From a plasmid: a stretch of DNA of 64,000 nucleotides. The translations under genes and the position numbers were made by a program. The stretch is from sequence record NZ_CP072388.1. The stretch is one strand, 5' to 3'. Below, piece after piece: positions 17,195 to 47,291 of the stretch (position 1 is the stretch's first letter; each line of letters starts with the position of its first letter). The notes below the pieces were generated by a model that worked only from the letters and a program-made list of their open reading frames with translations, was not told where the DNA came from and ran no database searches.

Positions 17195-18994
17195 GTGTCG
17201 TCGCCAACCGTTTCCGAGCTCTCGCAGGCGAGCCATGCGCACCCGCGCGCAGGCTCGCCCGACGAGCAGTGGGCGGACACCGCGCACCTCCTTGCAGGGT
17301 GCGACCGGGTGCGCATCGGCACGATCCGCGCTGATCGCAGCGTCGACTACCCCACCCGCGGCGAACGTAAACTCACACTCGCGCGTCCGACGGCACCGGC
17401 CGCGGTCCGCGTCTACGGTGATGACGGCTGCTGCCGCGCCCTGTTCCTCGACCTCGACGCCAAGGGCCGCCACGGTGCGGTCGACGTAGCCCGAGACGGA
17501 GCAGTGCTGCAGCGCATCCTCGCCGTTGCCGGGCTGCGTACCTTCGTCGACATCGCCCCGACCGGTGGTCGTCACATCTACGTCCCCCTCGCCAAGCGTC
17601 TGCCGTTCGAGGTTGCTCGCGAGCTCGTCGAGGCGCTTGCCCGGCACGCGCCCACGCTCGATCCAGGCCCGCACCGCAGCGTGCGCACCGGGTGCATCCG
17701 CACGCCAGGATCCACGCACGGCGCCGGCGGCCACCAAGTCCTGACCAGCAGCCTCTCGAGCGCTGTCGACGTCCTCAAGCGACCCAACCCACCCACCGCC
17801 ATTGCAGAGCTCCGCGGCATGCTCGCCGGCGACATTGCCGCGGTCCGCGCTCAGCGCGACGACCTGACAATCGTCTCTGCGCCCACCTCTGACCAGCCCG
17901 GTGCACCCGGCACGCTCTCCGCCCGTGTCGTCGCGATCGCCCGCAACGGGCTCTGGGACGTCGGCCGCTACGACTCGCCATCCGCTGCACGCCAGGCGGT
18001 CATCACGGCCTGCGTGCGTGCCGGCTGGGACATCACCGATGTGCAGCGTCGACTCAACGATGGCACATGGCCGGCTCTCGCGGGCATGTACGCCCGGTAC
18101 TCCCCCGCACGGCGCCCCGTGTCCCTGCGGGCCGACTGGCTCAAGGCGAGGGCGTACATCGCCTGTACGCCTCAAGACCCGAAAACCAGCAGTGACGTGC
18201 AGAAAGACAGTGTGCACATCTCCAACACAAGCGCTCTTCTGTCACAGGGGGGCGACGACCACGGCTGGATCCGAACCTGGCGGGCTGCGGTCTCCACCTA
18301 CGAGACGGTGCGTCTTCCCGGTAGGCACTGGTACACGGCACGGTTTCTTCTCCGTGCGATCGGAGAGGCTGCACACAAGACCGGCAGCAGGTACGTCGGA
18401 TTCGGCTGCAGATCGCTCGCTGAAGCCTGCGGAGCCGACTACACGACGGTGTCAGTCTTACTGCACGAACTCCAGCGTGCTGGCTGGATCGACCTGATCG
18501 AGTCCGCGCGCGGCGAGACAGCAGACCTGTACGAGCTCACCCTCCCCCACGATCTCCGCGGCCGGTCGGACGAACTGCGCTGGCAGCGTGGCAAGGTGTA
18601 CTCGCTTCGGCCGGCCTTCCGCGAGCTCGGCCACGTCAGTGCTTTCGTCTTCGAGGCCGTTGAGCAGGGCAGGGCCTCCTCCATCACGGAACTTGTCGCC
18701 ATCACCGGGATCTCGCGACGAGCTGTTCACACCAGCATTGACCTGCTCACCGCCTGGGACCTCGTCGAACGCACAGACGAGGGCCTGCGAGCCTTCCCGG
18801 AGCGCCTCGGGCGTGTCGCCGAGCACCTCGGCGCCTTCGAGGCGATCTACGAGCAGATGCGCCGTCACCGCGCACAGCGGGCCACCTGGCGGGCCTGGCT
18901 CGCGCGGTTCGAGGGCCACTGGGATGAGGGCGAGCACTGGGACGAACTCCACTCCCCCGCGGCCGAGACCCTCTTCGCGACGGAGGTGGCCTGA
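17195..18994 (+). CDS. replication protein with N-terminal primase-polymerase (Prim-Pol) domain and C-terminal winged-helix domains
   Basis: Prim-Pol motifs LFLDLDAKG (Dx D) and APTGGRHIYVPL (sGxGxHxh). Lies immediately upstream of the partition genes. Confidence 0.65.
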   Translation: MSSPTVSELSQASHAHPRAGSPDEQWADTAHLLAGCDRVRIGTIRADRSVDYPTRGERKLTLARPTAPAAVRVYGDDGCCRALFLDLDAKGRHGAVDVARDGAVLQRILAVAGLRTFVDIAPTGGRHIYVPLAKRLPFEVARELVEALARHAPTLDPGPHRSVRTGCIRTPGSTHGAGGHQVLTSSLSSAVDVLKRPNPPTAIAELRGMLAGDIAAVRAQRDDLTIVSAPTSDQPGAPGTLSARVVAIARNGLWDVGRYDSPSAARQAVITACVRAGWDITDVQRRLNDGTWPALAGMYARYSPARRPVSLRADWLKARAYIACTPQDPKTSSDVQKDSVHISNTSALLSQGGDDHGWIRTWRAAVSTYETVRLPGRHWYTARFLLRAIGEAAHKTGSRYVGFGCRSLAEACGADYTTVSVLLHELQRAGWIDLIESARGETADLYELTLPHDLRGRSDELRWQRGKVYSLRPAFRELGHVSAFVFEAVEQGRASSITELVAITGISRRAVHTSIDLLTAWDLVERTDEGLRAFPERLGRVAEHLGAFEAIYEQMRRHRAQRATWRAWLARFEGHWDEGEHWDELHSPAAETLFATEVA

Positions 18995-19147: not shown

Positions 19148-19924
19148 ATGACGACGACGACCGCGCTCGGAAACCAGAAGGGCGGTGTCGGGAAGACCAC
19201 GGTGTCGCTGTGTCTGCTGAGCGAGCTCGCTCGTCTCGGCAGGTCATGTCTGCTGATCGACCTCGATCAGCAGATGTCTGCGTCCTCGACCGTGGGCGCG
19301 GAGGGCGACATCACGATCGAGGACGTCCTGCGCGCGAAGGCTCCCGCGCACCTGTCCGATGCGATCGAGAAGTCGCAGTGGGAGGGGATCGACGTCGTTC
19401 CGGGCTCCGACACCATCCAGACCCTTGAACGTGACCCCGACGTCATGGCCGCCTTCCGTCTCCAGAAGGTCCTTCGAGACAACGCCGACCTGCTCTCCAA
19501 GTACGACGACATCATCATCGACCTGCCACCGGATCTGGGGACCTGTACGGTCTCCGGCCTCCTCGCGGCCGACCAGGTCGTCGCCGTGACGATCCCGGAG
19601 CCGTGGAGTTCCGAAGGCCTCGACCGATTCCTCACTACGCTCGAGGGGATCCGCCAGGGGCCTCACCCCTCGTTGACCCTGTTCGGCGTCATCGTGAACA
19701 TGGTCCGCCGCACCAACGAGCACCGGTACCGCATCGCCGAGTTGAACGACTCCGTGGGCGGGCTCGTCATGAACCCGGTGATCCCGCAGCGCGTCGCCGC
19801 GGCGGAGGTCGCAAGCGAGCAGCTGCCGCTGCACGAGCTGAAGAACGAGGGCGCAAAGGTCCTATCAGACCTGTTCGCTGAGCACGCCAGGGCGCTGGCC
19901 GAGGGCCGGAAGGGGAAGAACTGA
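19148..19924 (+). CDS. parA: ParA partition ATPase
   Basis: Walker A GNQKGGVGKTT. 258 aa. Confidence 0.9.
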   Translation: MTTTTALGNQKGGVGKTTVSLCLLSELARLGRSCLLIDLDQQMSASSTVGAEGDITIEDVLRAKAPAHLSDAIEKSQWEGIDVVPGSDTIQTLERDPDVMAAFRLQKVLRDNADLLSKYDDIIIDLPPDLGTCTVSGLLAADQVVAVTIPEPWSSEGLDRFLTTLEGIRQGPHPSLTLFGVIVNMVRRTNEHRYRIAELNDSVGGLVMNPVIPQRVAAAEVASEQLPLHELKNEGAKVLSDLFAEHARALAEGRKGKN

Positions 19925-20559: not shown

Positions 20560-21010
20560 CCTGCGTCGATCGCGCGGGGCCCTCAGCCTTTGCGCAGGCG
20601 TGTGTGAAGTCATGAATGCATGAAGTCATGAGTACCGCGGTCCCAGCCGCGCCCAGCACCGTTCATGAAAGCATGCATGAATGCATAAACTCGCGAGCCC
20701 ATCGTTGGGCCGGCGTACATCCACCACCCGGACAGTTCATGCATGCCTTCATGAAAGCAGGAACGAATGAATGCATGATCCCGTGACCACTTTGCGTGCG
20801 TCGGTGAAAGTATGAAGTAGTTCACGCATTCATGTACCACTTCATGCATGACTGCATGTGTTGATGAAGCAAGTCATGAAGCCATTCATGTTTACATGCA
20901 TTCATGCATGACGTCATGAACGCATGAATGCATGAACGGTTCTCCTGCGAGCTGTTGGTTCGGGCGACCATGCATGAATGCATGAATGCATGCATGCGTT
21001 CATGCAGTTC
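20560..21010. repeat. dense iteron/centromere-like array built from CATG-centred palindromes (TTCATGCATGAA, TCATGA, GCATGC, ACATGT)
   Basis: More than 30 copies of the TCATG/CATGA hexamer in about 450 bp. AT-rich island inside 70% GC DNA. Six-frame ORFs here are M/H/C-rich artefacts of the repeated ATG/CAT. Confidence 0.8.
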
Positions 21011-23528: not shown

Positions 23529-23880
23529 TGGTGGAGCTCGGCAGGGTGCGTGGTGCGCCGGCCGGTGGCCGGCCCGATCTGTGGCCGCTGCGCGGCCCGG
23601 TGCTTTCCCGCGCTGCGCGCGGGGAAGTCGTCCCCTCCTGGCTCTCCATCATCGCCCGCGCGACCCTGCGCGCAACCCGCTCGACTACGTCGCCGGCCCG
23701 TCGCCGAAACTCGTCGCCCGGCGCTCCTTCGTCGCTTCATCCGGGCGACGAGCCCCGTCGTCGGACCGTACCGCGGGTTGCACTCCGGGCCGCTTATGCG
23801 GGCGTTGATTACGGAGCCAGGAGGGGGCGAAAAACGGTCGGGACCACCCGCCACCCGCCACCTGGCAGGAAGGAGCCCCC
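23529..23880 (+). repeat. R1 leader repeat, copy 1 (about 350 bp, non-coding, ends in RBS plus start codon of downstream gene)
   Basis: Near-identical to 25144-25495 and 29240-29539. Contains hairpin CCCGCGC-tgc-GCGCGGG and the conserved tail ggagccaggagggggcgaaaaacggtcgggaccacc. Confidence 0.8.
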
Positions 23881-24915
23881 GTGGCTCACCAGCCCGCACT
23901 CCGCGCCCGCACCGTCGCCGACGTGCTCGCCTACATCCCCGCGTGCATCGGGTACACCCCGACCGAGAGCATGGTCGTCGTCGCCCGCCGGTCGAGCACC
24001 GGCACCGTCGGCCTGGTCGCTCGCGCGGACCTGTCCGACGTCACGCCCGAGACGGCCGACATGCTCGCCGTGCACGTCGCCAACGACCGCGCCGCGTCCG
24101 CGATCATCGCCCTGTACACCGAGGACCGCGAGCAGGCCGACCGCACCCTCGCGGGCATGACCGAGGCCCTGCACGGCCAGGCCGTCGACGTGTACGACGC
24201 CGTGCAGGTCAGCGCCGACGGGTACGTCGACCTCCACGCGCCGCACCCGGTCGTGCGCCCGCTGTCGGACGTGACCTCGAGCGTGCTCGCCGCCGAACTG
24301 GTCGCCTCCGGCGTCGCCCCGGCGCGTGACCGCGCCGGGCTGCTGCCCGGCGCGGCCGACGAGGCCGCCCAGGACCTCGCCCGCAGTGCGGCCGCCAAGC
24401 ACGCCGCCAAGACGCGCGACGAGCAGACCACCCACGCGCTCGCCACGTGGCGACTCGCGCTCAGCGGCCTGGTCGACGGCCCCGCGATCTACGGCGAACT
24501 CGCGCAGATGCTCACGCACATCAAGGTCCGTGACGCCGCCCTGCTGACCGCCGTCCCCGACGTCGACCCGGACACCGTGACCCAGGTTGTCACCGGGCAG
24601 AACCCGGACGACGACGCCGTGGGCCGCGCGATCGCCGCGATGGTGGACCCGAAGGTCGGCGTCCAGCCCGGTGAGGCCGCCGACGCCGCGCGCGATCTGC
24701 TCGCGCAGATCATCGCGCACGTGCCCACCAGCGCCGCCGCGTGGACGCTGTGGGGCTTCCTCACGTGGTGGACCGGGCAGAACGGCATCGCGGGCGACGC
24801 CATCGACCGCGCGCTCAGCGTCGACGACGGCTATCGCCTGGCCCTGATGCTGCGGGCCGTGCTTCGGGCGGGCCTGCCGCCCGCATGGGTCGTGCGCGAG
24901 CGCGACGCGCAGTGA
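23881..24915 (+). CDS. DUF4192-like hypothetical protein (344 aa)
   Basis: GTG start right after R1 copy 1. Actinobacterial mobile-element protein family. No catalytic motif recognised. Confidence 0.6.
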   Translation: MAHQPALRARTVADVLAYIPACIGYTPTESMVVVARRSSTGTVGLVARADLSDVTPETADMLAVHVANDRAASAIIALYTEDREQADRTLAGMTEALHGQAVDVYDAVQVSADGYVDLHAPHPVVRPLSDVTSSVLAAELVASGVAPARDRAGLLPGAADEAAQDLARSAAAKHAAKTRDEQTTHALATWRLALSGLVDGPAIYGELAQMLTHIKVRDAALLTAVPDVDPDTVTQVVTGQNPDDDAVGRAIAAMVDPKVGVQPGEAADAARDLLAQIIAHVPTSAAAWTLWGFLTWWTGQNGIAGDAIDRALSVDDGYRLALMLRAVLRAGLPPAWVVRERDAQ

Positions 24916-25060
24916 CACCCGGCGCGCGGCCCGTGGGACAGCCCCGCGGGCCGCGCGCCCTCCGCGCGGGGTGCTGCCCGTACCGGCCCATCGAGGGCCG
25001 GCACGAGCACCGGGGAGCTGCCGCCCCCCGGACCCCCGCCTCATCCCGACGCGCGTCCCA
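24916..25060 (+). repeat. R2 trailer repeat, copy 1 (hairpins GCGCGGCCCG...CGGGCCGCGC and CCGGCCC-atcga-GGGCCGG)
   Basis: About 130 bp, largely conserved with 26903-27045. Terminator-like inverted repeats. Confidence 0.7.
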
Positions 25061-25143
25061 GCAGACCGCACCGAACCAGCCACCAGCGCCAGGCCGGGGA
25101 GCGGCCCGTGGCCGATGGGGGAGTGCCGGTAGCGGGTGCGCCT

Positions 25144-25495
25144 GGTGGAGCTCGGCCAGGTGCGTGGTGCGCCGGCCGGTGGCCGCCCCGATTCGGTGGC
25201 CGCTGCGCGGCCTGGTGTTCTCCCGCGCTGCGCGCGGGGGAGTCGTCCCCTCCTGGCTCTCCATCATCGACCGCGCGACCCTGCGCGCAACCGACCTCGC
25301 TGCGCGTCCCGGCCCGGCGAAACTCGGCGGCCTGCGGTCGCTGCGCTCCCTGAGCTCGGCCGGCGAGCCCCGCCGTTCCGGGACCGGTCGGTTGCGCTCT
25401 GGGCCGCTTGTGCGGTCGGTGATTACGGAGCCAGGAGGGGGCGAAAAAACGGTCGGGACCACCGGCCACCCACCTGCTGGCGGGAAGGGGCACCC
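25144..25495 (+). repeat. R1 leader repeat, copy 2
   Basis: See copy 1. Copies differ by single-nucleotide indels (gaaaaacgg versus gaaaaaacgg), so R1 is non-coding. Confidence 0.8.
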
Positions 25496-26902
25496 ATGAC
25501 CACCGACACCACGGCCACTCAGGCCGAGACGACCACCACCGCCGACGGCGCGGAGTTCGCCCACGTCGACCCGCGCACCCTGGTTGTCGGCGTGAACGTG
25601 CGCGCCGACGCCGACCTCACGCCCGCGTTCGTCGGCTCGATCAAGCAGCACGGAGTCCTGCAGCCCGTGCGCGTGCGCCGCGACGACGACGGCACGCTCG
25701 TCGTCCTGCACGGCCAGCGCCGCACCCTGGGCGCGATCGAGGCGGGCCAGGCGACGATCCCCGCGTACATCGTGACCAGCAGCGGCGAGGGCGCGCAGCG
25801 CATCGTGGAGCAGTTGGCCGAGAACGACCATCGCGAGGACATGCGCGACAGCCACCGCACCGCCGCCTACCGTCAGCTCTCGCTCGAGTTTGGGCTGAGC
25901 GCGGCGCAGATCGCCAAGCGCACCGGCACGAAGAAGGCCGTCGTCCAGGCCACGCTCACCGTGGCCGAGTCCCAGGTCGCCGCCGCCGTGCAGGCCAAGT
26001 ACGACCTGCCGCTGGATGTGGCCGCCGCCCTGGCGGAGTTCGACGACGACACTGAGACCGTCAAGAACCTGACCGCCGTCGCGGTCAAGGAGCCTGGCCG
26101 CTTCGCCCACGAGGCTCAGCGCGCGCGTGACGAGCGCCAGCGCGCCGCCGAGGTCGCCGCCGCCCGCGAGACCCTGACCGCACAGAACGTGACCGAGGTC
26201 GAGCGCCCCGACTACAACGACGCCAAGGTCCAGCACCTGGCTCGACTCAAGCCCACCAACGACGACCCGAACGGCACCGACCTGACCCCCGAGGCGCACG
26301 CCGAGTGCCCCGGTCACGCGGCGTACATCGCCGCGCAGTGGAACCGCGTCGAGATCGTCTACGTCTGCACGAACTGGCGCACCCACGGCCACGCCGACCG
26401 CTACGGCACCACCAGCACCCAGCGCACCGGACCGATGAGCGAGGCCGAGAAGGCCGAGCGCAAGCAGGTCATCGAGAACAACAAGGCGTGGAAGTCCGCC
26501 GAGACCGTGCGCCGGACCTGGCTCGCGGAGTTCGCCCAGCGCAAGACCGCCCCCAAGGGCGCCGCCGAGTACATCGCCCACGCGATCGCCACCGAAACCC
26601 ACACCCTGCGACGCGCAGGAGAGCGCGGACACACACTGGCCAGCGAATGGCTCGGCATCAAGACCGAGACCAGCCCGTACCCGACCGGACGCGGCCTGGC
26701 CGACCTCATCGCCAAGGCCACCCCCAGCCGCGCCCAGCACATCGCGCTCGTCCTCGCCCTCGCCGCACGCGAGGCCGAGACCGGCGTGCAGACCTGGCGC
26801 CGCGAAGGCGCCGAACAGACCTACCTCAGCGCACTCGAAACCTGGGGCTACACCCTCAGCGACGTCGAGCAGATCGCCCGAGGCCAGGCGCCCACCGAGT
26901 AG
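25496..26902 (+). CDS. ParB/Srx N-terminal domain protein (ParB-like nuclease domain), 468 aa
   Basis: LQPVRVRRDDDGTLVVLHGQRRTLGAIEAG matches the ParB N-terminal domain fold motif (GxRR). ATG at 25496 directly follows R1 copy 2. Confidence 0.65.
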   Translation: MTTDTTATQAETTTTADGAEFAHVDPRTLVVGVNVRADADLTPAFVGSIKQHGVLQPVRVRRDDDGTLVVLHGQRRTLGAIEAGQATIPAYIVTSSGEGAQRIVEQLAENDHREDMRDSHRTAAYRQLSLEFGLSAAQIAKRTGTKKAVVQATLTVAESQVAAAVQAKYDLPLDVAAALAEFDDDTETVKNLTAVAVKEPGRFAHEAQRARDERQRAAEVAAARETLTAQNVTEVERPDYNDAKVQHLARLKPTNDDPNGTDLTPEAHAECPGHAAYIAAQWNRVEIVYVCTNWRTHGHADRYGTTSTQRTGPMSEAEKAERKQVIENNKAWKSAETVRRTWLAEFAQRKTAPKGAAEYIAHAIATETHTLRRAGERGHTLASEWLGIKTETSPYPTGRGLADLIAKATPSRAQHIALVLALAAREAETGVQTWRREGAEQTYLSALETWGYTLSDVEQIARGQAPTE

Positions 26903-27045
26903 CACCCAGCGCGGTCCGTGGGACAGACCCGCGGGCCGCGCACCCGGGTGCGCGCGCTGCCTGCGCCGGCCCATCGAGGGCCGGCGCAGACACCGGGGAG
27001 CTGCCGCCCCCCGAACCCCCGCCTCGGCATGAGTACCGGATCAGA
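26903..27045 (+). repeat. R2 trailer repeat, copy 2
   Basis: Same hairpins as copy 1 (cgcggtccgtgggacagacccgcgggccgcg; ccggcccatcgagggccgg). Confidence 0.7.
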
Positions 27046-27192
27046 AGAACGCCACCGTGGCCGACGGTCGAGATTTCAACGAGGAACTTCCGAGCCTACG
27101 TGCGGCTGCCGTGATGACCAGGTGCGATTGGCCTCGAGGTGGCCGGATTCCGCGCTTTCATCGTCTGGGTCGGTTGCATAGAACCCGAACGC

Positions 27193-28542
27193 TCATGGCG
27201 ACGAGAGGGTCGCGACTCGCCAGTTGAGGCTATTTGCGACTTCGTAGACGGAGGCTGCGAATCCGTACGGGCTGCATCCGCGGCCGTTCGGCTGCGCAGC
27301 AGGGACCCCGTTGCAGTTGTCCAGGACCCACTCCTCGTCTTCGAACCAGTAGATCCCCGAGATGACGCCCAGAGCGCGTGGTCGGAAGCCCGCGTCGACG
27401 GAAACCAAGTCGAACACGGGGCCACCGCTGTCTCCGCTGCCCCACAGCGGTTCGCCGAGTTGGTTGACGATACGAGCGACCTTTGCGCTGGTGATGTCGG
27501 TGTCCTCATACTCGACGAAATAGTCGGTTTCGACGACCTGCCCACCGCAGGTCATGCCGGAGTACGATCCCGAGCTGCAGACCTCTTGTCCGAGAAGATA
27601 GCCAGTGGAGACTGCCTCCACGCCGACGTACTGGGTGCTCGTGTACTCGCCGATGTACATGTAGGGGTTCGACCAGTCCTGCGTCAGGACGGCGCCGTCG
27701 AGGCTTGTGAGCCGGTGCGTCATGTTGCCGTAGTGGTAGGCCATGAGGCCGCCTTCAGACATGGCGGTACGGACCCATTGGGAGTTGATCGGACCGCAGT
27801 GGGCGGCGGTGACCATCCCGTAGTCGCCGGTGACCTTGTGTCGGGTGGCGAAAGCGGTGCTGCAGTTGCCACGGAGGTAGCCGTCCTGGAACCGGCTTAT
27901 CCGGGCGCCGCCCAAGTGCAGGTTGTCGGACAGTCGGGCGGGGTTGTTCTGGACGTTCTCGTTGACGCGCACCGGCACGCCGGCGATCTCGCTCAGCTCG
28001 TTGGCTACTTCGTCGCGATCGGGGCTCGCGCTGCGGCGTGCACCGGTTGACGTGCTCTGGTCAAGGTCCACATAGACGCCAGAGGCGTCGGCGTTGACGC
28101 CCGCGCCGGCGACCTTTGCACCGCCCACCTCGGTGCCGGGAAGACTTGCCGCGGCCCGGCGGAGGTCTCCAGGGAGGTACGGGGCGGCAGTAACCGCCAA
28201 GTTCTCCGACGGCGTCAGGTCAGCTGGGACGTCCCCGTACCACGCGACAGACAGGTGGGACCGGTCGTCCGAGATGGCGAGCGTGCCGAGGCGGTCGTCG
28301 GAGCCGTAGCGCTTCCTGATCTCGTCGGCCTTGGCGGCCACAACCTCGGGAATGGCGGGCGTGTGAAGGTGCTGCGCCAGGTCAGACGGGTCGAGGACTG
28401 ACCGTTGATCGACGGGGCCCTGTACATCGGGCTCAGGCGGCGGGACGGGCGAGTTCGTCGCGTGTGCAGCGATCCCCCCGCACAGAGAGAGCGAGACGGC
28501 GGCGACGAGCGCATAGCTGCCGCGTTGCAGCCTGGACTTCAT
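27193..28542 (-). CDS. secreted trypsin/chymotrypsin-family (S1) serine protease, alpha-lytic/streptogrisin-like
   Basis: Signal peptide, TAAHCG (His) and GDSGGP (Ser). Locally lower GC. Confidence 0.8.
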   Translation of the reverse strand: MKSRLQRGSYALVAAVSLSLCGGIAAHATNSPVPPPEPDVQGPVDQRSVLDPSDLAQHLHTPAIPEVVAAKADEIRKRYGSDDRLGTLAISDDRSHLSVAWYGDVPADLTPSENLAVTAAPYLPGDLRRAAASLPGTEVGGAKVAGAGVNADASGVYVDLDQSTSTGARRSASPDRDEVANELSEIAGVPVRVNENVQNNPARLSDNLHLGGARISRFQDGYLRGNCSTAFATRHKVTGDYGMVTAAHCGPINSQWVRTAMSEGGLMAYHYGNMTHRLTSLDGAVLTQDWSNPYMYIGEYTSTQYVGVEAVSTGYLLGQEVCSSGSYSGMTCGGQVVETDYFVEYEDTDITSAKVARIVNQLGEPLWGSGDSGGPVFDLVSVDAGFRPRALGVISGIYWFEDEEWVLDNCNGVPAAQPNGRGCSPYGFAASVYEVANSLNWRVATLSSP

Positions 28543-28550
28543 GTTTCCCC

Positions 28551-29003
28551 CTACGTTGTCGTATGCGGTACCGCTTTGCCATTAACGAGAACCTCGACAG
28601 CGTCGTCGACGGAATTCTCGACCGGGATCTCCACAACGTGACTAAAAGGAACGCTATCCGCGGTGCAGCTCATGTTGTTGCTGCGCGCCATCTCGAGAGC
28701 GAGAGTTGTCGATCCTTGCCAAGCGATCCCCACCGGGATCGCTGGGCAGCTGGAACTACCCCAGGACGTGACCGTGAGCGTCGGCGGCTCGGCGGTCGGG
28801 TCGATGACTACATTCGACTGCCCCTCCGGCGGTGGCCTGAGCGTCGAGTCCTCGGTGGGAAACGAGTCGACAGCGATCGAGACAGCGGGCACGCCAGTCC
28901 TGGATGCGGGAGGCGGGTCACTAGAGGGCGCCGCACAGCCGGTGATGACGCCAACGACGAGCAACCCAGTGAAAAGCACCGGCACGTAGGCGGCTCGCCT
29001 CAT
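28551..29003 (-). CDS. lipoprotein (lipobox ITGC), co-operonic with the S1 protease
   Basis: Signal peptide plus Cys, 150 aa, 8-bp gap to the protease gene. Confidence 0.55.
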   Translation of the reverse strand: MRRAAYVPVLFTGLLVVGVITGCAAPSSDPPPASRTGVPAVSIAVDSFPTEDSTLRPPPEGQSNVVIDPTAEPPTLTVTSWGSSSCPAIPVGIAWQGSTTLALEMARSNNMSCTADSVPFSHVVEIPVENSVDDAVEVLVNGKAVPHTTT

Positions 29004-29239
29004 TGACTATCCCCCAAAGTCAAGGTGGTGGAAGGAGAGTGCCATAAGTTCGGATGGTCGACAAGGGTCGGGCGCGCGGTCCGTGCTCGGCCGCGAACGA
29101 GTAAGGGGCACGTTGAGCGTCTGAGCGTGGCGAGACTCAGCCGCGTCGCTCGCCGAAGATCAGGGTGCTCGAGGGCGCGTTCTTGCGCGGTGCAGGGGCA
29201 CGGCAGATCCCTGCGCCTTGAGGCCCGCTGCGCGGGCTG

Positions 29240-29539
29240 TTCGTGCCGCTGCGCGGCCCGGTGTTGTCCCGCGCTGCGCGCGGGGGAGTCGTCCCCTCCT
29301 GGCTCTCCATCATCGACCGCGCGACCCTGCGCGCAACCGACCTCGCTGCGCGTCCCGGCCCGGCGAAACTCGGCGGCCTGCGGTCGCTGCGCTCCCTGAG
29401 CTCGGCCGGCGAGCCCCGCCGTTCCGGGACCGGTCGGTTGCGCTCTGGGCCGCTTGTGCGGTCGGTGATTACGGAGCCAGGAGGGGGCGAAAAACGGTCG
29501 GGACCACCGGCCACCCACCTGCTGGCGGGAAGGGTCACC
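29240..29539 (+). repeat. R1 leader repeat, copy 3
   Basis: See copies 1 and 2. Ends ...ctggcgggaagggtcacc-ATG. Confidence 0.8.
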
Positions 29540-29929
29540 ATGACCACCAACTCCGCGCACGTCTTCGGTGAGCCGATCCACGTCTACACCCGCGCCCGGG
29601 CCCTGGCCGACGGCGTCCTGGTCGACGCCGGGCCGCTGGCCGGTGAGGCAGGGTTCCGCTGGCCCGTCGCGCTCACCCAGGCGGCTCACGCCGAGGCTGT
29701 CACCTGGAACCCCGAGCACGGCCCCGGGCAGGACGAGACCGGCCGACTGTGGGACGTGCTCTGGCTCGCCACCATCGCGGCCCGCGCGGGCCGCTCCCGG
29801 TTTACCGTGGCCCGCGTCCCCAATCTCCCGGGCCAGGACGAGGCCCAGGGCCTCGACCTCGTGCTCCACGTCGGCCCCGGCGACACGGGCGAACCGGTCG
29901 TGACGATCAGCCTCCCCGGCGAGGACTGA
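29540..29929 (+). CDS. small hypothetical protein (129 aa)
   Basis: ATG directly after R1 copy 3. Followed by hairpin GCGGCGGGCC-agcagc-GGCCCGCCGC. Confidence 0.5.
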   Translation: MTTNSAHVFGEPIHVYTRARALADGVLVDAGPLAGEAGFRWPVALTQAAHAEAVTWNPEHGPGQDETGRLWDVLWLATIAARAGRSRFTVARVPNLPGQDEAQGLDLVLHVGPGDTGEPVVTISLPGED

Positions 29930-30337: not shown

Positions 30338-30487
30338 ACCACCAGCGGGCCGGGCGCAAGAACGCCCGGCCCGCCCCTCACCTGAGGTATACATACAGAT
30401 GCGCTAGATGTATACTTGAGGTGTTGGAAGGGCACGCAACGGCCGGAGACCACCGGCCACCCGGCACCAACGCAAAGGAGGGCCCTC

Positions 30488-30769
30488 GTGGCTCAGCACA
30501 CCATCGCCGCCCAGGACGCGAGCCGCGCGTCGTTCGAGGCCAGCATCGAGGCCGCCAAGCGCCACGCGCGGGAGACCGGCGAGGACCTGTACGACGTGCT
30601 GGATCGGATGGACCGCAACGACGCGAGCGTCGTCCCGGCGATCCACCCCCTGATCAGCGCCGACAAGGCCCACCTGGCCCAGCGCATGCGCGGCGCCCTG
30701 TGGATCGATCCGACCGGACGCCGCACCTACACCCCGCCCGCGCGCACCCTGGGCGAGCTGCTCGCCTGA
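30488..30769 (+). CDS. small hypothetical protein (93 aa)
   Basis: GTG start preceded by aaggaggg. Downstream of the AT-rich palindromic site at 30395-30430. Confidence 0.45.
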   Translation: MAQHTIAAQDASRASFEASIEAAKRHARETGEDLYDVLDRMDRNDASVVPAIHPLISADKAHLAQRMRGALWIDPTGRRTYTPPARTLGELLA

Positions 30770-35126: not shown

Positions 35127-35455
35127 ACCGCGGGTGCGCCGCGACAGGTCGCCGCGCACAACACGTCGCGGCCCTGCGGGCCGCGGCTGGAGCATCATCT
35201 GTCTTCGGTCCGTCCCTGGCTGCGAGTGTGGCCGGCCGTCCCCGGGCGCAAGCCGGCTCCGCTGCGCTGCGGCCCGCCCATCCGCGACGTTCTCGGCTGC
35301 GCTCCTTCGTCGCTGAGCCCGCCGAGAACGTCGCGCCCGCGCGGGCGTCCCGACTCGCTCGCGGTGCTCGCGCCCTGCGGGTGCGTCCGGGGACGGCTTC
35401 CAGCCAACGCTCTGGCTGCAGGGACGGTCCGAAAAACGACGTGGGGGAGGGCATC

Positions 35456-35707
35456 ATGACCAGCCAGGGGATCGAGGTCACCGTGTACAGCAAGCCGGCG
35501 TGCGTGCAGTGCGACGCGACGTACCGCGCTCTGGACAAGAAGGGGATCGCGTACACCGTGGTGGACATCAGCGCCGACGCCCTCGCGCTCGAGCGGGTGC
35601 GTGCCCTGGGGCACCTCCAGGCCCCGGTCGTCGTCGCCGGTGACGTGTCGTGGTCCGGGTTTCGGCCCGACCAGGTCAATGCCCTCGCGGCCCGTCAGGA
35701 GGTCTGA
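35456..35707 (+). CDS. nrdH: NrdH-like glutaredoxin/redoxin
   Basis: CVQC active site in a thioredoxin fold of about 80 aa. RBS ggggagg upstream. Confidence 0.65.
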   Translation: MTSQGIEVTVYSKPACVQCDATYRALDKKGIAYTVVDISADALALERVRALGHLQAPVVVAGDVSWSGFRPDQVNALAARQEV

Positions 35708-35708
35708 C

Positions 35709-36734
35709 ATGAGCGACGAGTTGACCCGTGAGCGCACGGTGCAGATCAACGCCGCGGCGTGGGAGTTCTGGCGCTTCCATGCGAACAGTGCTGACGACTG
35801 GACCCGGGCCTACCTCGCCGCACGCGGGCTGCGCGGCCTGCAGGCCGGGTACGCGCCCGAGGGGTGGGCTCGGCTGGTGGGCCGCATGCGCGGCCGCGGG
35901 TTCAGCGCGGACGAGATCGTGGCCGCCGGCCTCGCGTTCCGCACCGAATCCGGCTCGGTAGGGGACGTCTTCCGCGACCGCCTGGTGCTGGCGTACCGCG
36001 ACGAGCACGGCGACATCGTCGGGTTCACCGCGCGTCGCAACCCCGCGCTCGACGACGACGGCGATGCGCCGGCGAAGTACCTCAACACGACCGCCACGCC
36101 CGCGTTCGACAAGAGCCGGGACCTGTACGGCCTCGACCCCGCGGCCGCGCGGAACATCCGTGCCGGCGCGCGCGTCGCGGTCGTCGAGGGCGCCCTGGAC
36201 GCCGAGGCCATCCGCCGCACCGGGACCGCCGTGGTCGCCGTGTCCGGGTGCGGCACCGCGGTCACCGCGACGCACCTCGAGCGGCTGCGCGCGATCCACC
36301 CGGACGCCGTCGCGCTGGCCGTGTTCGCGTTCGACGCCGACGCCGCTGGCCGCGGTGCCGCGTCGCGCGTGTGGGACCTGCTCAACGACGTCGAGGCCGG
36401 CACCGCCGGCGCCCTGGTGCTGCCCGAAGGGACCGACCCCGCGCAACTCGTCCAGGACGGCCACGGGCACGCCCTCGCCGAGCGGCTCGCGCAGCCGACC
36501 AGCCTCGCGAGCGTCGTCGTCGACGCCGAGCTCGCACGCCACGACCTGACGATCCCCGAGGGTCGCGTCGCCGGACTGCGCGCCGCGGCCGCACGCGTCG
36601 CACGCATCCCACAGGCGCCCCTGGCACGCGTCGGCGCCCACCTGCACGCACGCCTGGCGCCGCACACCGACCTGGGCACGATCGCCGGCGAGCTCGCCGT
36701 CGCGCATGCAGGCGCGGCGCGCGGGGGCGCGTGA
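35709..36734 (+). CDS. DnaG-like primase core (TOPRIM domain), no zinc finger
   Basis: TOPRIM Glu (VAVVEGALDAEAI) and DxD (FAFDADAAG). The ATG comes 1 nt after the nrdH stop. Confidence 0.7.
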   Translation: MSDELTRERTVQINAAAWEFWRFHANSADDWTRAYLAARGLRGLQAGYAPEGWARLVGRMRGRGFSADEIVAAGLAFRTESGSVGDVFRDRLVLAYRDEHGDIVGFTARRNPALDDDGDAPAKYLNTTATPAFDKSRDLYGLDPAAARNIRAGARVAVVEGALDAEAIRRTGTAVVAVSGCGTAVTATHLERLRAIHPDAVALAVFAFDADAAGRGAASRVWDLLNDVEAGTAGALVLPEGTDPAQLVQDGHGHALAERLAQPTSLASVVVDAELARHDLTIPEGRVAGLRAAAARVARIPQAPLARVGAHLHARLAPHTDLGTIAGELAVAHAGAARGGA

Positions 36735-38254: not shown

Positions 38255-38300
38255 GGAGCAAGCTATACACTTACGTGCCGTAAGTGGCTTGATGGCTCGA
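38255..38300 (+). promoter_or_regulatory. candidate oriT: perfect inverted repeat CACTTACG-tgc-CGTAAGTG followed by gcttgatgg
   Basis: Lies about 100 bp upstream of mobC. Further hairpins lie just downstream (GACGC-tgc-GCGTC; CCCCGCT-gga-GCGGGG). Confidence 0.4.
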
Positions 38301-38384
38301 CGCTGCGCGTCGGCGATGGCACACTGGGCGTGTGGTCCCCGCTGGAGCGGGGTCGCTGCGCTGGGCGAACAGGAGCAAGACGAC

Positions 38385-38783
38385 GTGACCGAGCAGACGA
38401 CGCGAGCACGCAGCCAGAAGCGGCAGCGGCGCGCGAACGTGCCCGGGGGACGACGCCACTACCACCGCGTCGGAGTGACGCCCGAGGAAGAGGCGATGCT
38501 GTTGCAGCGGGCCGCGGCCGCGAAGGTCACCGTGCCGCGCTTGCTCGTCGAGTCTGCGCTTGCGGAGCATGGTGAGACCGCGACCGATCGCGCTGAGTTG
38601 CTGACGGAGCTGTTCCACGCGCGGAGGCTGCTCGCTGCCGTGTCGAACAATCTCAACCAGGTAGCGCGTGCGACGAATGCGACGGGCGAGATCCAGGCCG
38701 AGCTGACGGACACCCTGCGCAACGTGACGATCACCAGCGAGCGGGTCGGGCGGGCGCTTCGACGGTTCGAGGTCGGCGCATGA
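38385..38783 (+). CDS. mobC: MobC-family relaxosome accessory protein
   Basis: Signature NNLNQVARATN. GTG start preceded by aggagcaag. Confidence 0.65.
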   Translation: MTEQTTRARSQKRQRRANVPGGRRHYHRVGVTPEEEAMLLQRAAAAKVTVPRLLVESALAEHGETATDRAELLTELFHARRLLAAVSNNLNQVARATNATGEIQAELTDTLRNVTITSERVGRALRRFEVGA

Positions 38784-40324
38784 TGCCGAACATCACGCGC
38801 GGCGACAGGGTCGCCGGCGTGATGGTGTACCTCGCGGGGGAGGGGCGGCACAACGAGCACACGAACCCGCACGTCGTTGCCGGGCACGACGTCATCGTGG
38901 ACGTGGTCGGCGGGCGCGAGCTGAGCACCGACGACGCTCTCGACATCGCCAACGAGCTCGATCTGCCGCGGCGCGTGTTCGGCACGCGCGTGACCGTCCC
39001 GGTCAAGGAGTGGAGCGAGGAGCAGCAGCGCCAGGTCAAGGTCGGTGACCGGGACGCGCACGTTTGGCACTGCTCGCTGTCGCTGCGCGCCGCGGAGGGC
39101 ACGCTGTCGGACGAGCAGTGGAACCGGATCGCGACCGACTTCGTAGAGGGCATGGGCTTCGGGGCCGCCAGTGACGACGGCGCCGGGTGCCGGTGGGTCG
39201 CGGTCCGGCACGGGCTGTCGTCGGCCGGCAACGACCACGTGCACATCGTGGTGAACCTCGTGCGCGAGGACGGCACGAAGGCGTCGGTGCACAACGACCA
39301 GCCGCGCGCGCAGCGCCTGACGAACGAGCTCGAGCACCGGCACGGGCTGCAGGTGCTCGAGTCGCGCGAGGTCGGACGCGGGGCACTTGCCGGCGCGAAG
39401 CCTGCCGAGCTCGGGCGCGCCGAGCGTGAGGGTGCCGCGCTCCCGGCGCGCGACGAGCTGCGCCGGCGCGTGCGCGCCGCGGCCGCGGAGGCGACGAGCG
39501 AGCGCGAGTTCCTGGACGCGCTGCGCGACGTGCGGGTGCTGGTCCGACCCCGGTACGCCGAGGGCGGGCGCGAGCGCGTCGTCGGGTACTCGGTCGCCCT
39601 CCCGCCGTCGGTCGATGACGGGCGGCGCGCGGCACCGGTGTGGCACGGCGCGGGCCGCCTCGACAACTCCCTGGCGCTCGGCCAGCTGCGCGCCCGCTGG
39701 GGCGCCGACGTCGCCGGCGACCCGGCCCTGACGCCGGCATGGACCCAGCGGTGGACCACCCTTGACGTCGCGGACAAGGTGCGTGCGAGCGAGCCACCGC
39801 GCGACGCCGCACGCGCCCTGGTCGGGCTGTCCGGGACGCTCGGAGACGGCGGACAGCGCCTCGCGGCCGCCGACGCCGCGGGCGTGTTCGCGCGCGCATC
39901 GATCGCGCTCGAGAAGGACAAGCCAGGTCCGCTCGCCAAGCTCTCCGACGACCTCGCCCGCGCGGCCCAGCCCTCGGCCTACACCGCAGAGGACCGTGAC
40001 CGGCAACGGCGCGAGAACGCCGCGCTTGGGGCCGCGTACGTCAGTCGGCTCATGGCCCGCGGCACGGGCAGCGACTCACGCACCGGATGGATCGCCGTCA
40101 TGCGGCAAGCCGAGCGCACCGCCCGCGCGATCGCGCACGCCCAGGCACTGCAGGGACGGGCGGTCGCGGCGGCGCAGACGAACCGTGCGCTCCTCGCCGC
40201 GGTCGCAGCGGTGCCGCAGATGGAAGGCCGCGCCGCGGCGCCGAACCTCGATCCGGGCGCCCACGCGATGCGCGACCGCCGAGGGGCTGCCGTGCGCGAC
40301 GTCGACGTGGAACAAGGCCGCTGA
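38780..40324 (+). CDS. relaxase (MobA/VirD2-type relaxase/mobilisation nuclease domain)
   Basis: His-triad motif GNDHVHIVVNLV. N-terminal region with the putative catalytic Tyr. Overlaps the mobC stop. Confidence 0.8.
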   Translation: MMPNITRGDRVAGVMVYLAGEGRHNEHTNPHVVAGHDVIVDVVGGRELSTDDALDIANELDLPRRVFGTRVTVPVKEWSEEQQRQVKVGDRDAHVWHCSLSLRAAEGTLSDEQWNRIATDFVEGMGFGAASDDGAGCRWVAVRHGLSSAGNDHVHIVVNLVREDGTKASVHNDQPRAQRLTNELEHRHGLQVLESREVGRGALAGAKPAELGRAEREGAALPARDELRRRVRAAAAEATSEREFLDALRDVRVLVRPRYAEGGRERVVGYSVALPPSVDDGRRAAPVWHGAGRLDNSLALGQLRARWGADVAGDPALTPAWTQRWTTLDVADKVRASEPPRDAARALVGLSGTLGDGGQRLAAADAAGVFARASIALEKDKPGPLAKLSDDLARAAQPSAYTAEDRDRQRRENAALGAAYVSRLMARGTGSDSRTGWIAVMRQAERTARAIAHAQALQGRAVAAAQTNRALLAAVAAVPQMEGRAAAPNLDPGAHAMRDRRGAAVRDVDVEQGR

Positions 40325-45813: not shown

Positions 45814-46794
45814 TCAAGTATTGCCGTCGCCGAGTCGGCGCAGGTAGTCGTTGTAGGCGTCGAGCTCGGGGTCGCCGTACTGGTCGATGCGACGGTCGGC
45901 CGCCCGGGTGCGGCGGGTCTCGTCCTTGTTCCAGCGCACGAAGATGATCAGCAGCATGATCAGCGAGGGCAGCTCGCCATAGGACCAGGCCAGCGCCCCG
46001 GCGACGCCCTGGTCGGCGAGCACGTCCACTCCCCAGGTCGCGGGTGGGTGGGTGAATGCGGAGACCAGGGGGGCGCTAGCCATCATGACGATGACGCCGA
46101 AGAACGCGTGGGTGGGCATCTCGATGAACATGTCCGCCGCCCGCCCGAGGTGTCCCTGGGGTCGGGGTAGCGGGTCGCGGGAAAGCACGGGGATGGTGAA
46201 CAGGATCCCCGCCAGCAGGAACAGCAGCTCGAGGGAGAGGTGTCCGGTCCATGTGCCCAGGAGGTTGCCGGCGAGCGGGCTGAGGTACAGGGCGTAGAAG
46301 CACAGCAGGAACAGCGGGATCATCAGGGCTGGGTGCAGCACGACCTGACCGGCCCCTGATCGCAGGCCCCACCGGGCGGCGATGAGCACGGGCCGCCCCA
46401 TCCGGGTATGAGGGGTGGCGCGCAGAAGCAGCGTGCCGGGGCGGCCCAGGACCAGCAGCGGCGGGACGGCCATCATGAGGGTGAGCTGCTGGAACATGAA
46501 CACCGAGTACATCTCCAGGCCGTAGCCCTCCACGCCGGCGCCCATCACCACGACCAGGACGGCGCACCCGGTGAGGAAGGACAGCGTCGCCCACGGCGAC
46601 CAGCGCCGCCCGCTGGCCCAGACGCGGATCGCGCCGGCCAGGTACGCCGCGGCGGCGAGGAGCCCGAGCACGGGGATGACCGGGATGGGCTGCAGCGTCG
46701 GGGCGAGGAACGTCTCCCATGACGGGGGCTCGGTCGGCAGCCACACGGGGCCGTCGAACTGCGTTGGGAGCAGAGGGCCCATGCGCACCTGCAC
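45814..46794 (-). CDS. CtaG(Caa3-type)/CopD-like membrane protein
   Basis: About eight TM helices. Family resemblance to cytochrome oxidase assembly/copper-resistance CopD proteins. No search performed. Confidence 0.5.
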   Translation of the reverse strand: MQVRMGPLLPTQFDGPVWLPTEPPSWETFLAPTLQPIPVIPVLGLLAAAAYLAGAIRVWASGRRWSPWATLSFLTGCAVLVVVMGAGVEGYGLEMYSVFMFQQLTLMMAVPPLLVLGRPGTLLLRATPHTRMGRPVLIAARWGLRSGAGQVVLHPALMIPLFLLCFYALYLSPLAGNLLGTWTGHLSLELLFLLAGILFTIPVLSRDPLPRPQGHLGRAADMFIEMPTHAFFGVIVMMASAPLVSAFTHPPATWGVDVLADQGVAGALAWSYGELPSLIMLLIIFVRWNKDETRRTRAADRRIDQYGDPELDAYNDYLRRLGDGNT

Positions 46795-46892
46795 CTCCGT
46801 TCCTGCCGCCGGGACGGGTCCGGACGCTAGCAGACCTGGCCGGGAGCGCCCTCGGCTCGGGTTCAGGTCGTACCTCTATCATCACCCTCGTC

Positions 46893-47291
46893 ATGGGCAC
46901 CTCGACTCGACCTCGCGTGGGCGCGGCCGCAACGCGGCTCGTGCTCGTCTTCGCGCTGCTCGCGTTGACCGGACTGTTCGCCCTCACCACCGTCGACTCG
47001 ACCGCGCCGGCCGCCGCCGGTGTGGTGGCTGCCGAGCACGTCACCCAGGACCCGTCCGCCGAAGAGGCTGCTGCGCAGCTCGGTGGCAGCGAGGTGCCGC
47101 ACGGTGAGGTGCTGACTTTGCTGTGCCTGTGCGCGCTGCTGATCGCCGGTGTCGTCATCGCAGCCCGGGGCGCGATGCTGCACCGCTCCACGAGACGCCT
47201 GCCCGGTCTTCGTACCCTCGTGGGTGTCTTGCGAGCCGCACGGAGACCCGTTGTCGCCGATCCATGGGTCTGGGGGGTCAGCCGGACGTAG
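46893..47291 (+). CDS. hypothetical exported/membrane protein
   Basis: Signal-like N-terminus and a C-terminal TM. Internal start of ORF 46719..47291. Confidence 0.35.
   Translation: MGTSTRPRVGAAATRLVLVFALLALTGLFALTTVDSTAPAAAGVVAAEHVTQDPSAEEAAAQLGGSEVPHGEVLTLLCLCALLIAGVVIAARGAMLHRSTRRLPGLRTLVGVLRAARRPVVADPWVWGVSRT

Follow-up and report, generated by a model that had tools for sequence, protein, structure and literature searches.

Why does one block of noncoding DNA stand three times, always in the same orientation, directly ahead of three different genes of a conjugative plasmid? The DNA in question is a stretch of 64,000 nucleotides from the plasmid in sequence record NZ_CP072388.1 (the window), which is part of a Micrococcales-type conjugative plasmid. 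The block, here called R1, heads three cassettes on the + strand at 23.5-29.9 kb, and a second element, R2, follows the genes of two of them. A previous reading made from the letters alone (the sequence-only reading) had offered two answers: R1 might be a promoter of the Frpo/ssi (single-strand initiation) type, which folds in incoming single-stranded DNA (ssDNA), or it might be a shared leader under the control of a repressor. Our comparative evidence supports the former, in particular promoter-like boxes that come together only in a hairpin and GNA triloops on the - strand. The computational checks suggested by the sequence-only reading all favored the ssDNA promoter, and of its refuting observations none that could be looked for in sequence was made. 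We estimate a probability of roughly 55% that R1 is a hairpin promoter, acting in ssDNA, of the conjugative leading region, similar in kind to Frpo but belonging to a family unrelated to it in sequence. We are nearly certain of the broader conclusion that R1 folds as a single strand and functions in the regulation of leading-region genes. The R1 copies of the window and the genes behind them are as follows:

23529-23880, + strand (by direction of transcription; folding and action are proposed for the - strand): R1a, ending at the ribosome-binding site (RBS) and start of the DUF4192 gene
23881-24915, + strand: DUF4192 gene, behind R1a
25143-25495, + strand: R1b, upstream of the orphan ParB-like gene
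[quoted passage not shown]
29239-29539, + strand: R1c, ahead of the DUF6573 gene and of the + strand genes behind that one; without H0, the first of the small hairpins
29540-29929, + strand: DUF6573 gene (129 aa), behind R1c

The sequence-only reading had described three near-identical copies of R1, and repeat families, alignment and core boxes all bear this out. R1 is present as three direct copies (repeat families D2-D4 and D6), whose three-way alignment has a mean column identity of 82%. R1b and R1c are 98-99% identical, and R1c lacks the first ~95 nt of R1a and R1b. The element is 300-350 bp long with a GC content of ~73%, and two 28-nt core boxes each occur exactly three times in the window, where 0 are expected. 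A filter-free scan of 15-42 kb with a covariance model found no further, diverged copies above noise. Every copy in the window terminates at an RBS (GGAAGGR) and the start codon of a different gene, as had been recognized, and the 129-aa protein among the products is a DUF6573 protein. The label "ParB-nuclease-like" has to be withdrawn for the product of the second gene in favor of a CTP-type ParB N-terminal domain with an HTH; its C-terminal ~270 aa have no assigned domain. The reading frames of the R1b and R1c genes stay open back into R1, but codon-position GC rules out that R1 is a coding N-terminal extension: GC1, GC2 and GC3 (the GC contents of the three codon positions) are all ~0.7-0.8 in R1, whereas the genes have a GC3 of 0.92-0.95 and a GC2 of ~0.5. 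In addition, the near-identical R1b and R1c would be read in different frames owing to 1-nt indels, and R1a contains an in-frame stop. The earlier argument that copies differing by such indels are not a coding duplication is therefore upheld.

R1 is not confined to this plasmid. BLAST detected R1-like sequence in Cellulosimicrobium cellulans pTL2A, the nearest annotated relative (84% identity over 51% of a 13-kb region), and in one plasmid each of Paraoerskovia and Xylanimonas. None of these matches lies beneath an annotated feature, and no annotated coding sequence of the homologues overlaps R1. In all three plasmids each R1-like sequence gives way to a gene (DUF4192, ParB-like, DUF6573 or a small hypothetical one) at that gene's start, which answers the question raised by the sequence-only reading of whether R1 recurs ahead of such genes in other conjugative plasmids of actinobacteria. 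With a degenerate 19-base pattern taken from the R1 right arm, 31 genome loci and 32 metagenome loci were retrieved, and a covariance model built from 11 copies recognized 37 sense copies in genomes and 33 in metagenomes. Matches to the pattern in contigs of Verrucomicrobia, Proteobacteria and Bacteroidota were attributed to chance, as none of them fits the covariance model. The family comprises ~57 distinct copies from Micrococcales, Kribbella and a Mycobacterium metagenome-assembled genome (MAG); the genome carriers are Cellulosimicrobium, Isoptericola, Oerskovia, Actinotalea, Cellulomonas, Puerhibacterium, Paraoerskovia, Xylanimonas, Kribbella and the Mycobacterium MAG, with 2-4 copies per contig in a single orientation. 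The 5' boundary of R1 varies among copies. At the 3' end, an RBS and an open reading frame (ORF) with coding-type GC3 follow directly in all 35 copies that are not cut by the end of the locus, and these ORFs encode ParB_N (11), DUF4192 (9) or DUF6573 (8) proteins or have no Pfam match (7).

Folding of each strand and a search for covariation, both suggested by the sequence-only reading, gave clear results. Both strands of R1 fold much better than shuffled sequences, the - strand with a free energy of -126 kcal/mol (z -6.4). Compensatory changes are seen at 24 of 57 pairs in the set of 11 copies. In the set of 37 copies, both sides have changed in 35 of the 57 pairs and 93.8% of cells hold standard pairs, compared to 36-50% when the partners are slid by 1-3 columns; the observed measures were reached by none of 500 shuffles. 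From these alignments we conclude that R1 is under selection to fold as a single strand, and the covariation and fold therefore rule out a purely duplex-DNA element. Read in gene sense, R1 consists of one to three small hairpins, an imperfect hairpin of ~208 nt with a branched apex, an A-run, and a small hairpin with CCACCC that leads into the RBS and start codon. These parts are located in the window at:

23583-23623 (R1a), 25198-25238 (R1b) and 29245-29284 (R1c), - strand: small hairpins H1 (GGCCGC-TGC-GCGGCC) and H2 (CCCGCGC-TGC-GCGCGGG)
23627-23834 (R1a), 25242-25449 (R1b) and 29288-29494 (R1c), - strand: long imperfect hairpin of ~208 nt, from fold and covariation
23835-23874 (R1a), 25450-25489 (R1b) and 29495-29534 (R1c), + strand: common 5' untranslated region (UTR) module, consisting of a small hairpin with CCACCC (CGGTCGGGACCACCCGCCACCC) and then the RBS GGAAGGA

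In R1a the left arm of the long hairpin begins with GTCGTCCCCTCCTGGCTC and the right arm finishes with GAGCCAGGAGGGGGCGAAAAA. No match to R1 was found in Rfam 15 at the gathering score across the whole window, and the lone match at relaxed thresholds was to a plant microRNA precursor (27 bits vs. a cut-off of 75).

Which strand is selected to fold? We place the action of R1 on the - strand because of triloop polarity, mismatch types, stability (a weak argument) and plasmid geometry. The R1 copies contain 165 triloop hairpins whose stems have 4 bp or more. Of these, 78 are of the type C-TNC-G in gene sense, that is, C-GNA-G on the - strand, and none has the opposite polarity (C-GNA-G on the + strand). 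N is G, A or T, and the stems covary. Outside R1 the two polarities are rare and balanced in the window (10 and 11 of 439 triloops). The loops of H1 and H2 are C-GCA-G triloops on the - strand, and the heptamer GCTGCGC (GCGCAGC on the - strand) occurs 2-4 times per R1. We know of no special stability of C-UNC-G triloops in RNA. In DNA, d(GNA) triloops closed by C:G, for example d(gcGCAgc), are very stable (PMC3201870).

For mismatch types the totals are not decisive, but a split by helix is informative. Raw wobble counts favor the + strand (96 G.T vs. 34 A.C), but 73 of the 96 G.T come from three fixed positions, and the fold itself was derived on the + strand. When two fixed positions are left aside, the main hairpin has 33 A.C and 12 G.T in + sense, which favors the - strand. 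The small hairpin 3' of the predicted transcription start is RNA-like (37 G.U vs. 1 A.C). With DNA parameters the - strand is the more stable in 30 of 33 copies, by a mean of -6.3 kcal/mol.

The geometry of the plasmid requires the features around the putative origin of transfer (oriT):

38256-38298, - strand (the presumed nicked strand): oriT-like inverted repeat, CACTTACG-TGC-CGTAAGTG, with an invariant flank
38391-38783, + strand: mobC/NikA-like gene
38780-40324, + strand: MobA/VirD2-type relaxase (PF03432), which together with mobC defines the lagging side of oriT

All three R1-driven genes share the orientation of mobC and the relaxase, as the sequence-only reading had it. Its oriT-like site near the cassettes is also present, although the distance is 8.7-14.7 kb and not 6-15 kb. 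The geometry of a leading region, also claimed at that time, holds beyond the window: R1 genes are co-oriented with the relaxase and lie on the far side of oriT in 4 of 4 replicons with two relaxase families. In the window and in the Xylanimonas and Paraoerskovia plasmids they lie upstream of oriT, mobC and the relaxase on the same strand, and pTL2A, with an unrelated MobF relaxase, has the same arrangement across the origin of its record. Relaxase genes usually sit within the lagging region, the last part to arrive, and for leading genes the template is the transferred strand (PMC11541004, PMC9849209). When the oriT regions are aligned, the inverted repeat is flanked on one side by a block, GGAGCAAGCTATACACTTA, that does not vary, as would suit a - strand nick region 3' of the repeat. 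From this flank conservation and the rule that the relaxase lags, we infer that the - strand is the transferred strand and the template of the R1 genes.

The 3' arm of the long hairpin on the - strand carries an arrangement that resembles a promoter:

23670-23675 (R1a), 25285-25290 (R1b) and 29331-29336 (R1c), - strand: -35-like hexamer TTGCGC
23648-23653 (R1a), 25263-25268 (R1b) and 29309-29314 (R1c), - strand: -10-like hexamer GATGAT (GANNNT in the family)
23807-23821 (R1a), 25421-25435 (R1b) and 29467-29481 (R1c), + strand: predicted transcription-start zone

From loop to base this arm reads [G/C]TTGCGC, 16 nt, GANNNT, GGAGAG, CCAGGAGGGG. The start zone comprises the template-arm side of a conserved internal loop (GATTACGG) and the beginning of a perfect 13-bp stem (GAGCCAGG). 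TTG is kept in 34 of 35 genome copies, with a spacer of 16 nt in 29 and 15 nt in 6. The -10-like hexamer is GATGAT in 23 of these copies, GATCAT in 6, GAGGAT in 4, and GAGCAT and GAGACT in one each, such that G, A and the last T never vary and the bases between them change together with their pairing partners. Of the metagenome copies, retrieved through the arm opposite the boxes, 21-22 of 22 full-length ones keep TTGNNN-16-GAT[G/C]AT, and the TTGCGC-16 nt-GANNNT arrangement is present in about 55 of 57 R1 copies. A blind scan for TTGNNN-N15-18-NANNNT returned a single conserved site in R1, on the - strand, in 32 of 33 copies, and no conserved site on the gene-sense (+) strand. Two other placements considered by eye, a -10 in the internal loop of the 5' arm (CGTAAT/TAATCA) and boxes of the extracytoplasmic-function type, proved neither conserved nor properly spaced.

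The pairing around these boxes is itself conserved. The A at "-11" stands opposite C (27), A (7) or G (1) and never opposite T in the 35 genome copies, whereas its neighbors covary and stay paired. Minimum-energy folds of six diverse copies have the -35-like box and the spacer in duplex, the "-11" A unpaired and TGAT paired. Three unpaired bases then follow the -10, facing a conserved ATTACGG loop, and the perfect 13-bp stem comes after them. In duplex DNA the gene-sense strand offers G[G/T/C]TGAT, without the A, and its TTG box is ~24 nt away. A consensus scan of 23-30 kb found no sigma-70-type duplex promoter, and no conserved promoter was seen upstream of R1.

The second element (direct-repeat family D5) was also recovered where the sequence-only reading had seen it, behind two of the genes:

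24916-25060, + strand: R2a, directly behind the stop codon of the DUF4192 gene, with the 17-mer CGGCCCATCGAGGGCCG at 24984-25000
26903-27045, + strand: R2b, behind the stop codon of the ParB-like gene, with the 17-mer at 26967-26983

R2 folds into three GC-rich hairpins (z -4 to -5). In the relatives it lies directly 3' of R1-driven genes, often just ahead of the next R1, and at some loci the gap between R2 and the next R1 is only ~24 nt. The 17-nt core CGGCCCATCGAGGGCCG is identical in 11 of 11 R2 copies from six genera (loci L001, L002, L003, L006, L013 and L028); the stem extension covaries, and a second GC hairpin lies 3' of the core. A scan for terminators with a hairpin and U-tract found no site in R2, whose hairpins are followed by C/G-rich sequence without a T-run. 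Conservation of the core exceeds the needs of a simple terminator hairpin. We speculate that R2 is a separate module that marks the end of a cassette, serving as a U-less terminator, as a stable ssDNA barrier between cassettes, or both.

How would such a promoter work? The - strand would be nicked at oriT (~38.26 kb) and enter the recipient 5' to 3' towards lower coordinates, with each gene arriving just ahead of its own R1. On the incoming strand R1 would fold, the C-GNA-G triloop hairpins forming and the ~208-nt imperfect hairpin closing. The 3' arm of the hairpin would act as the non-template strand and display TTGCGC, the paired 16-nt spacer and GANNNT, while the mismatched "-11" A and the 3-nt internal loop downstream of it would leave the -10 and discriminator partly pre-melted. 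Host sigma-A RNA polymerase could then start near GAGCCAGG on the 5' (template) arm and leave the hairpin, giving a transcript in which the common 5' UTR (small hairpin, CCACCC and RBS) precedes the DUF4192, orphan ParB-like or DUF6573 gene. Synthesis of the complementary strand would present a gene-sense strand without the A and with the TTG ~24 nt off, and the promoter would switch off. R2 would probably end the transcript, and may also be a stable ssDNA barrier between cassettes. The use of the boxes by RNA polymerase, the position of the transcription start, the switch-off in duplex DNA and the role of R2 are steps that we infer from conserved features of the family.

A wider proposal, which we offer only tentatively and consider rather doubtful as a whole, is that R1 and R2 form a phylum-specific, portable system of "establishment cassettes". 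In this system the R1 promoter would exist only in the transferred strand, the mini-hairpins would nucleate its fold on protein-coated DNA, and the -11 mismatch would replace melting. R2 would end the transcript and stall complementary-strand synthesis so that the next R1 stays single-stranded, and the cassettes would move between MobC/PF03432 and MobF plasmids.

Several observations weigh against the ssDNA promoter. The covariation of R1 is equally compatible with a DNA or an RNA fold, and the three fixed positions are G.U-compatible in gene sense. The stability advantage of the - strand is weak evidence, since it exceeds the regional background only modestly (-3.1 in control windows, about half). 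The oriT sequence by itself is silent on the nicked strand: when the repeat is compared to the MOBQ nic consensus (PMC3832669), TAAGTG alone matches, and it is present on both strands of the repeat. The boxes are off consensus, with G instead of T at -12, a -35 that matches TTGACA at 3-4 of 6 positions, and a spacer of 16 (sometimes 15) instead of 17 nt. By a rough estimate that covers both arms and strands, TTG...ANNNT would occur by chance in a ~100-nt arm of one sequence with a probability of ~0.1. This probability is not negligible, and the argument from the boxes therefore rests on conservation and context. In duplex DNA the - strand boxes could in principle be a weak promoter pointing away from the gene. 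Finally, the similar-looking EGeRS1 elements of pLS20 were judged not to be ssDNA promoters (PMC8708921).

The strongest alternative, which we nevertheless regard as unlikely, is that R1 is a structured 5' leader or intercistronic RNA, transcribed from farther upstream or by read-through, whose hairpin acts in the mRNA through processing, stabilization or protein-mediated control of translation. Covariation suits RNA as well as DNA, and the three G.U-compatible positions and the RNA-like last small hairpin point the same way. R1 also continues straight into the RBS, the ~24-nt gap between R2 and R1 at some loci makes co-transcription conceivable, and EGeRS1 of pLS20 provides a precedent for a repeated, inverted-repeat-rich leader with a mechanism other than an ssDNA promoter (PMC8708921). 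However, Rfam offered no matching family at either the gathering or the relaxed thresholds, R1 has no visible conserved promoter upstream, and its 5' boundary is variable. As RNA the triloops would be C-UNC-G, whereas the other strand has C-GNA-G, with a bias of 78 vs. 0. At the conserved mismatch the combinations T.T and T.C occur, which are unpaired in RNA too, and the sporadic mismatches of the main hairpin favor the - strand. A leader RNA also leaves unexplained why the sole conserved -35/-10-type arrangement lies on the antisense strand, at fixed spacing and beside an internal loop.

Alternatively, R1, with or without R2, may act on the incoming strand as a priming signal (a G4-type ssi used by the plasmid's DnaG-like or a host primase), as a roadblock that slows conversion to duplex DNA, or as both, and not as a promoter. 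The evidence for ssDNA folding of the - strand serves this explanation equally well. R1 and R2 are extremely stable GC hairpins, these plasmids carry a DnaG/toprim primase gene in their leading region, and Frpo also primes DNA synthesis, while the F hairpin ssp2 is a replication roadblock (PMC12672017; bioRxiv 10.64898/2026.01.09.698686). Neither function has any need for the fixed register to an RBS and start codon that 35 of 35 copies show, or for TTG-16-GANNNT with a mismatched A. Priming or stalling as the whole explanation thus seems quite improbable; both roles are compatible with that of a promoter and do not exclude it.

Less probable again is a duplex promoter/operator module of a repressor-controlled regulon, as in p576 (Reg576), whose activity in the recipient would be transient since the repressor is initially absent. 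In addition to the p576 precedent (PMC6294495), this explanation can draw on long invariant stretches in R1, on a 12-mer, GGTCGCTGCGCT, common to the R1 apex and a block upstream of mobC in three plasmids, and on the neighboring element at 30369-30433, which resembles a palindromic operator over a TATACT -10. It gives no reason for 35 compensatory pairs over ~200 nt or for strand-specific triloops, and the gene-sense strand is without a conserved -35/-10 arrangement. The repressor-controlled leader of the sequence-only reading thus fares only partly well: it cannot explain the ~200-nt covariation, but a common factor binding GGTCGCTGCGCT may be an extra layer on R1. That R1 is a MITE-like (miniature inverted-repeat transposable element) nonautonomous element or the end of an insertion sequence in intergenic regions, as its multiple copies, ~300-bp size and internal inverted repeats might suggest, is scarcely credible, as all copies are oriented alike and keep one register relative to the start codon and to an RBS that R1 supplies. 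They occur only with a handful of gene families in the leading regions of plasmids that are related, the window has no copies elsewhere, no transposase is adjacent, and the inverted repeats are internal and not terminal.

The ssDNA promoter proposed here has well-studied counterparts in enteric bacteria. In Frpo-type promoters, stem-loops rebuild the -35 and -10 boxes, and the promoters are active on ssDNA and silent as duplex (PMC9849209, PMC12672017). R1 resembles Frpo/ssi1-3 (class 1) and the class 2-3 ssDNA promoters of IncF and IncI1 plasmids (F, ColIb-P9 and pESBL) in being noncoding, a few hundred nucleotides long and present in several leading-region copies. Like them, it lies directly upstream of an operon presumably templated by the transferred strand, forms a long stem-loop that rebuilds boxes, precedes early "establishment" genes and is expected to be silent as duplex (PMC9849209, PMC11541004, PMC12672017, PMC13370423). 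R1 shows those defining features of ssDNA promoters that sequence can reveal, namely a leading-region position (with the transferred strand as presumed template), a large stable stem-loop and rebuilt boxes. The F plasmid even has an orphan ParB-like protein, HerB/YfjB, that is driven by the ssDNA promoter Frpo2 (PMC13370423), and the R1b gene likewise encodes an orphan CTP-type ParB, with a long C-terminal half of unknown type.

There are differences as well. A blastn search (word 11) with R1a against 5,426 complete E. coli genomes and their plasmids returned no match to Frpo/ssi or any other sequence, and R1 therefore falls outside the Frpo/ssi sequence families. R1 belongs to Actinomycetota hosts, has ~73% GC and off-consensus boxes (TTGCGC/GANNNT with a 16-nt spacer), carries accessory C-GNA-G mini-hairpins and a branched apex, precedes DUF4192 and DUF6573 genes, and is known from sequence alone. 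The EGeRS1 elements of the pLS20 family in Bacillus are GC-enriched, rich in inverted repeats and present 4-5 times per plasmid directly upstream of the RBS of establishment and anti-restriction operons; they have a strong predicted ssDNA/RNA fold and no strong duplex promoter (PMC8708921). Their authors rejected an ssDNA promoter because there were no boxes in the fold and the transferred strand was the non-template strand (PMC8708921). Set side by side by description, R1 is like EGeRS1 in being inverted-repeat-rich, repeated and directly ahead of the RBS. However, R1 is shorter (300-350 bp vs. 400-600 bp with several branches), its transferred strand would be the template, and its boxes are rebuilt. 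The EGeRS2/Reg576 promoters of p576 are comparable as a common module upstream of several establishment genes (PMC6294495), but are short duplex promoters with repressor operators and without long-range pairing, unlike the covarying ~208-nt hairpin of R1. G4-type and primosome ssi signals and F ssp2 are, like R1 as proposed here, clusters of stable hairpins with a role on plasmid or phage DNA in its single-stranded form. Complementary-strand synthesis can be primed by elements of the Frpo type and is stalled by ssp2, which lengthens early expression (bioRxiv 10.64898/2026.01.09.698686). A priming signal has no link to a gene start, whereas R1 stands in fixed RBS register and has promoter-like boxes.

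ssDNA promoters explain how protective genes are expressed before a conjugative plasmid becomes double-stranded. So far they have been demonstrated only in enterobacterial IncF and IncI plasmids, and searches elsewhere have started from Frpo-like sequence or from the consensus boxes of E. coli (PMC11541004, PMC12672017). We found no report of ssDNA promoters or of leading-region regulation in Actinobacteria in the searchable literature, and R1 looks like the first candidate family of ssDNA promoters outside E. coli-type plasmids. If this proves true, it would be the first such system shown outside Proteobacteria, and the strategy would appear general for conjugation by relaxase and type IV secretion system (T4SS). 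More such promoters could then be found by a comparative signature that combines covariation of a hairpin with boxes on its antisense arm, a mismatch at the -11 A and GNA triloops specific to one strand, and there would be recognition rules for high-GC genomes, where consensus searches fail. It would also make DUF4192, DUF6573 and orphan ParB-like proteins early establishment factors in Actinobacteria, a phylum whose conjugation is poorly understood. The ~57 natural R1 variants already serve as a mutational series.

Parts of R1 recur elsewhere in the window. The exact 12-mer GGTCGCTGCGCT occurs three times, in the apex of R1b (25336-25347), in the apex of R1c (29382-29393) and, 29 nt upstream of mobC, in an invariant block (38351-38362); it is absent from the apex of R1a. 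The 12-mer is common to the R1 apex and the mobC upstream block in three plasmids (L002 1742-1753; L003 27334-27345 and 16626-16637), and may be a common protein-binding site or an ssDNA feature that ties the relaxosome region to R1.

An R1-type hairpin with the CCACCC tail is also found at 30441-30463, behind an unrelated upstream element (30369-30433). The part shared with R1 starts just past the point where R1 transcription is predicted to begin, a layout to be expected if exchangeable promoters are attached to one common 5' UTR. The whole module at 30340-30500 contains a terminator-like hairpin, the palindrome CCTCACCTGAGGTATACAT-N13-ATGTATACTTGAGGTG with a good duplex -10 (TATACT), the R1-type tail, an RBS and a GTG start, and looks like a conventional operator-controlled promoter fused to an R1-type UTR. 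A matching hairpin and CCACCC tail is present in pTL2A (L001 1874-1928).

The remaining features of the replicon that bear on its transfer, replication and partition are:

3392-5143, - strand: VirD4-type coupling protein
5.1-11.4 kb, - strand: T4SS genes
17195-18994, + strand: replication protein of 599 aa with primase-polymerase (PrimPol) and winged helix-turn-helix domains
19148-19924, + strand: ParA
30.0-37.8 kb, mostly + strand: further genes, including those for a DnaG-like primase and Fic
35601-36734: DnaG-like primase gene

Because these plasmids encode a relaxase, a VirD4-type coupling protein and T4SS genes, they transfer ssDNA, unlike plasmids of the Streptomyces TraB type (PMC3429521). 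The same R1/R2 cassettes and closely related leading regions are joined to unrelated relaxases: a MobF relaxase in pTL2A (45966-49811), and MobC with a MobA/VirD2-type relaxase beside the R1/R2 regions of the window and of the Xylanimonas and Paraoerskovia plasmids. MOB-suite (via PLSDB) types pTL2A and the Paraoerskovia plasmid as "non-mobilizable", despite relaxase and T4SS genes in both.

The 599-aa protein is not a relaxase: it has a LigD-type primase-polymerase domain and two winged-helix domains and is therefore a replication initiator; its homologue in pTL2A is named "MarR family transcriptional regulator" in RefSeq. Between parA and an AAA-ATPase gene, dense 8-nt-phased repeats of the CATGAATGCATGA type (20591-21009; 11 overlapping 41-nt copies, direct-repeat family D1) probably represent the plasmid centromere (parS) or replication iterons. 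Between R2b and R1c, a 449-aa ORF on the - strand (27193-28542) is the chief departure from the co-oriented gene order of the leading region. Neither Pfam nor NCBIfam gave a match to it, and its GC3 of 0.82 makes it borderline coding. For this ORF, DUF4192, DUF6573 and other neighbors, a PDB sequence search and NCBIfam yielded nothing past Pfam. Upstream of the DnaG-like primase gene, nested long inverted repeats in intergenic DNA (35163-35346; arms of 25-26 nt, 80-85% complementary) may be another single-strand element of the leading region. Finally, the cargo at 42-64 kb is related to metals and redox and includes genes for a cation-efflux protein, CtaG, cytochrome c biogenesis and DsbD/thioredoxin, together with a P-type ATPase, a CadD-like transporter and an ArsR regulator.

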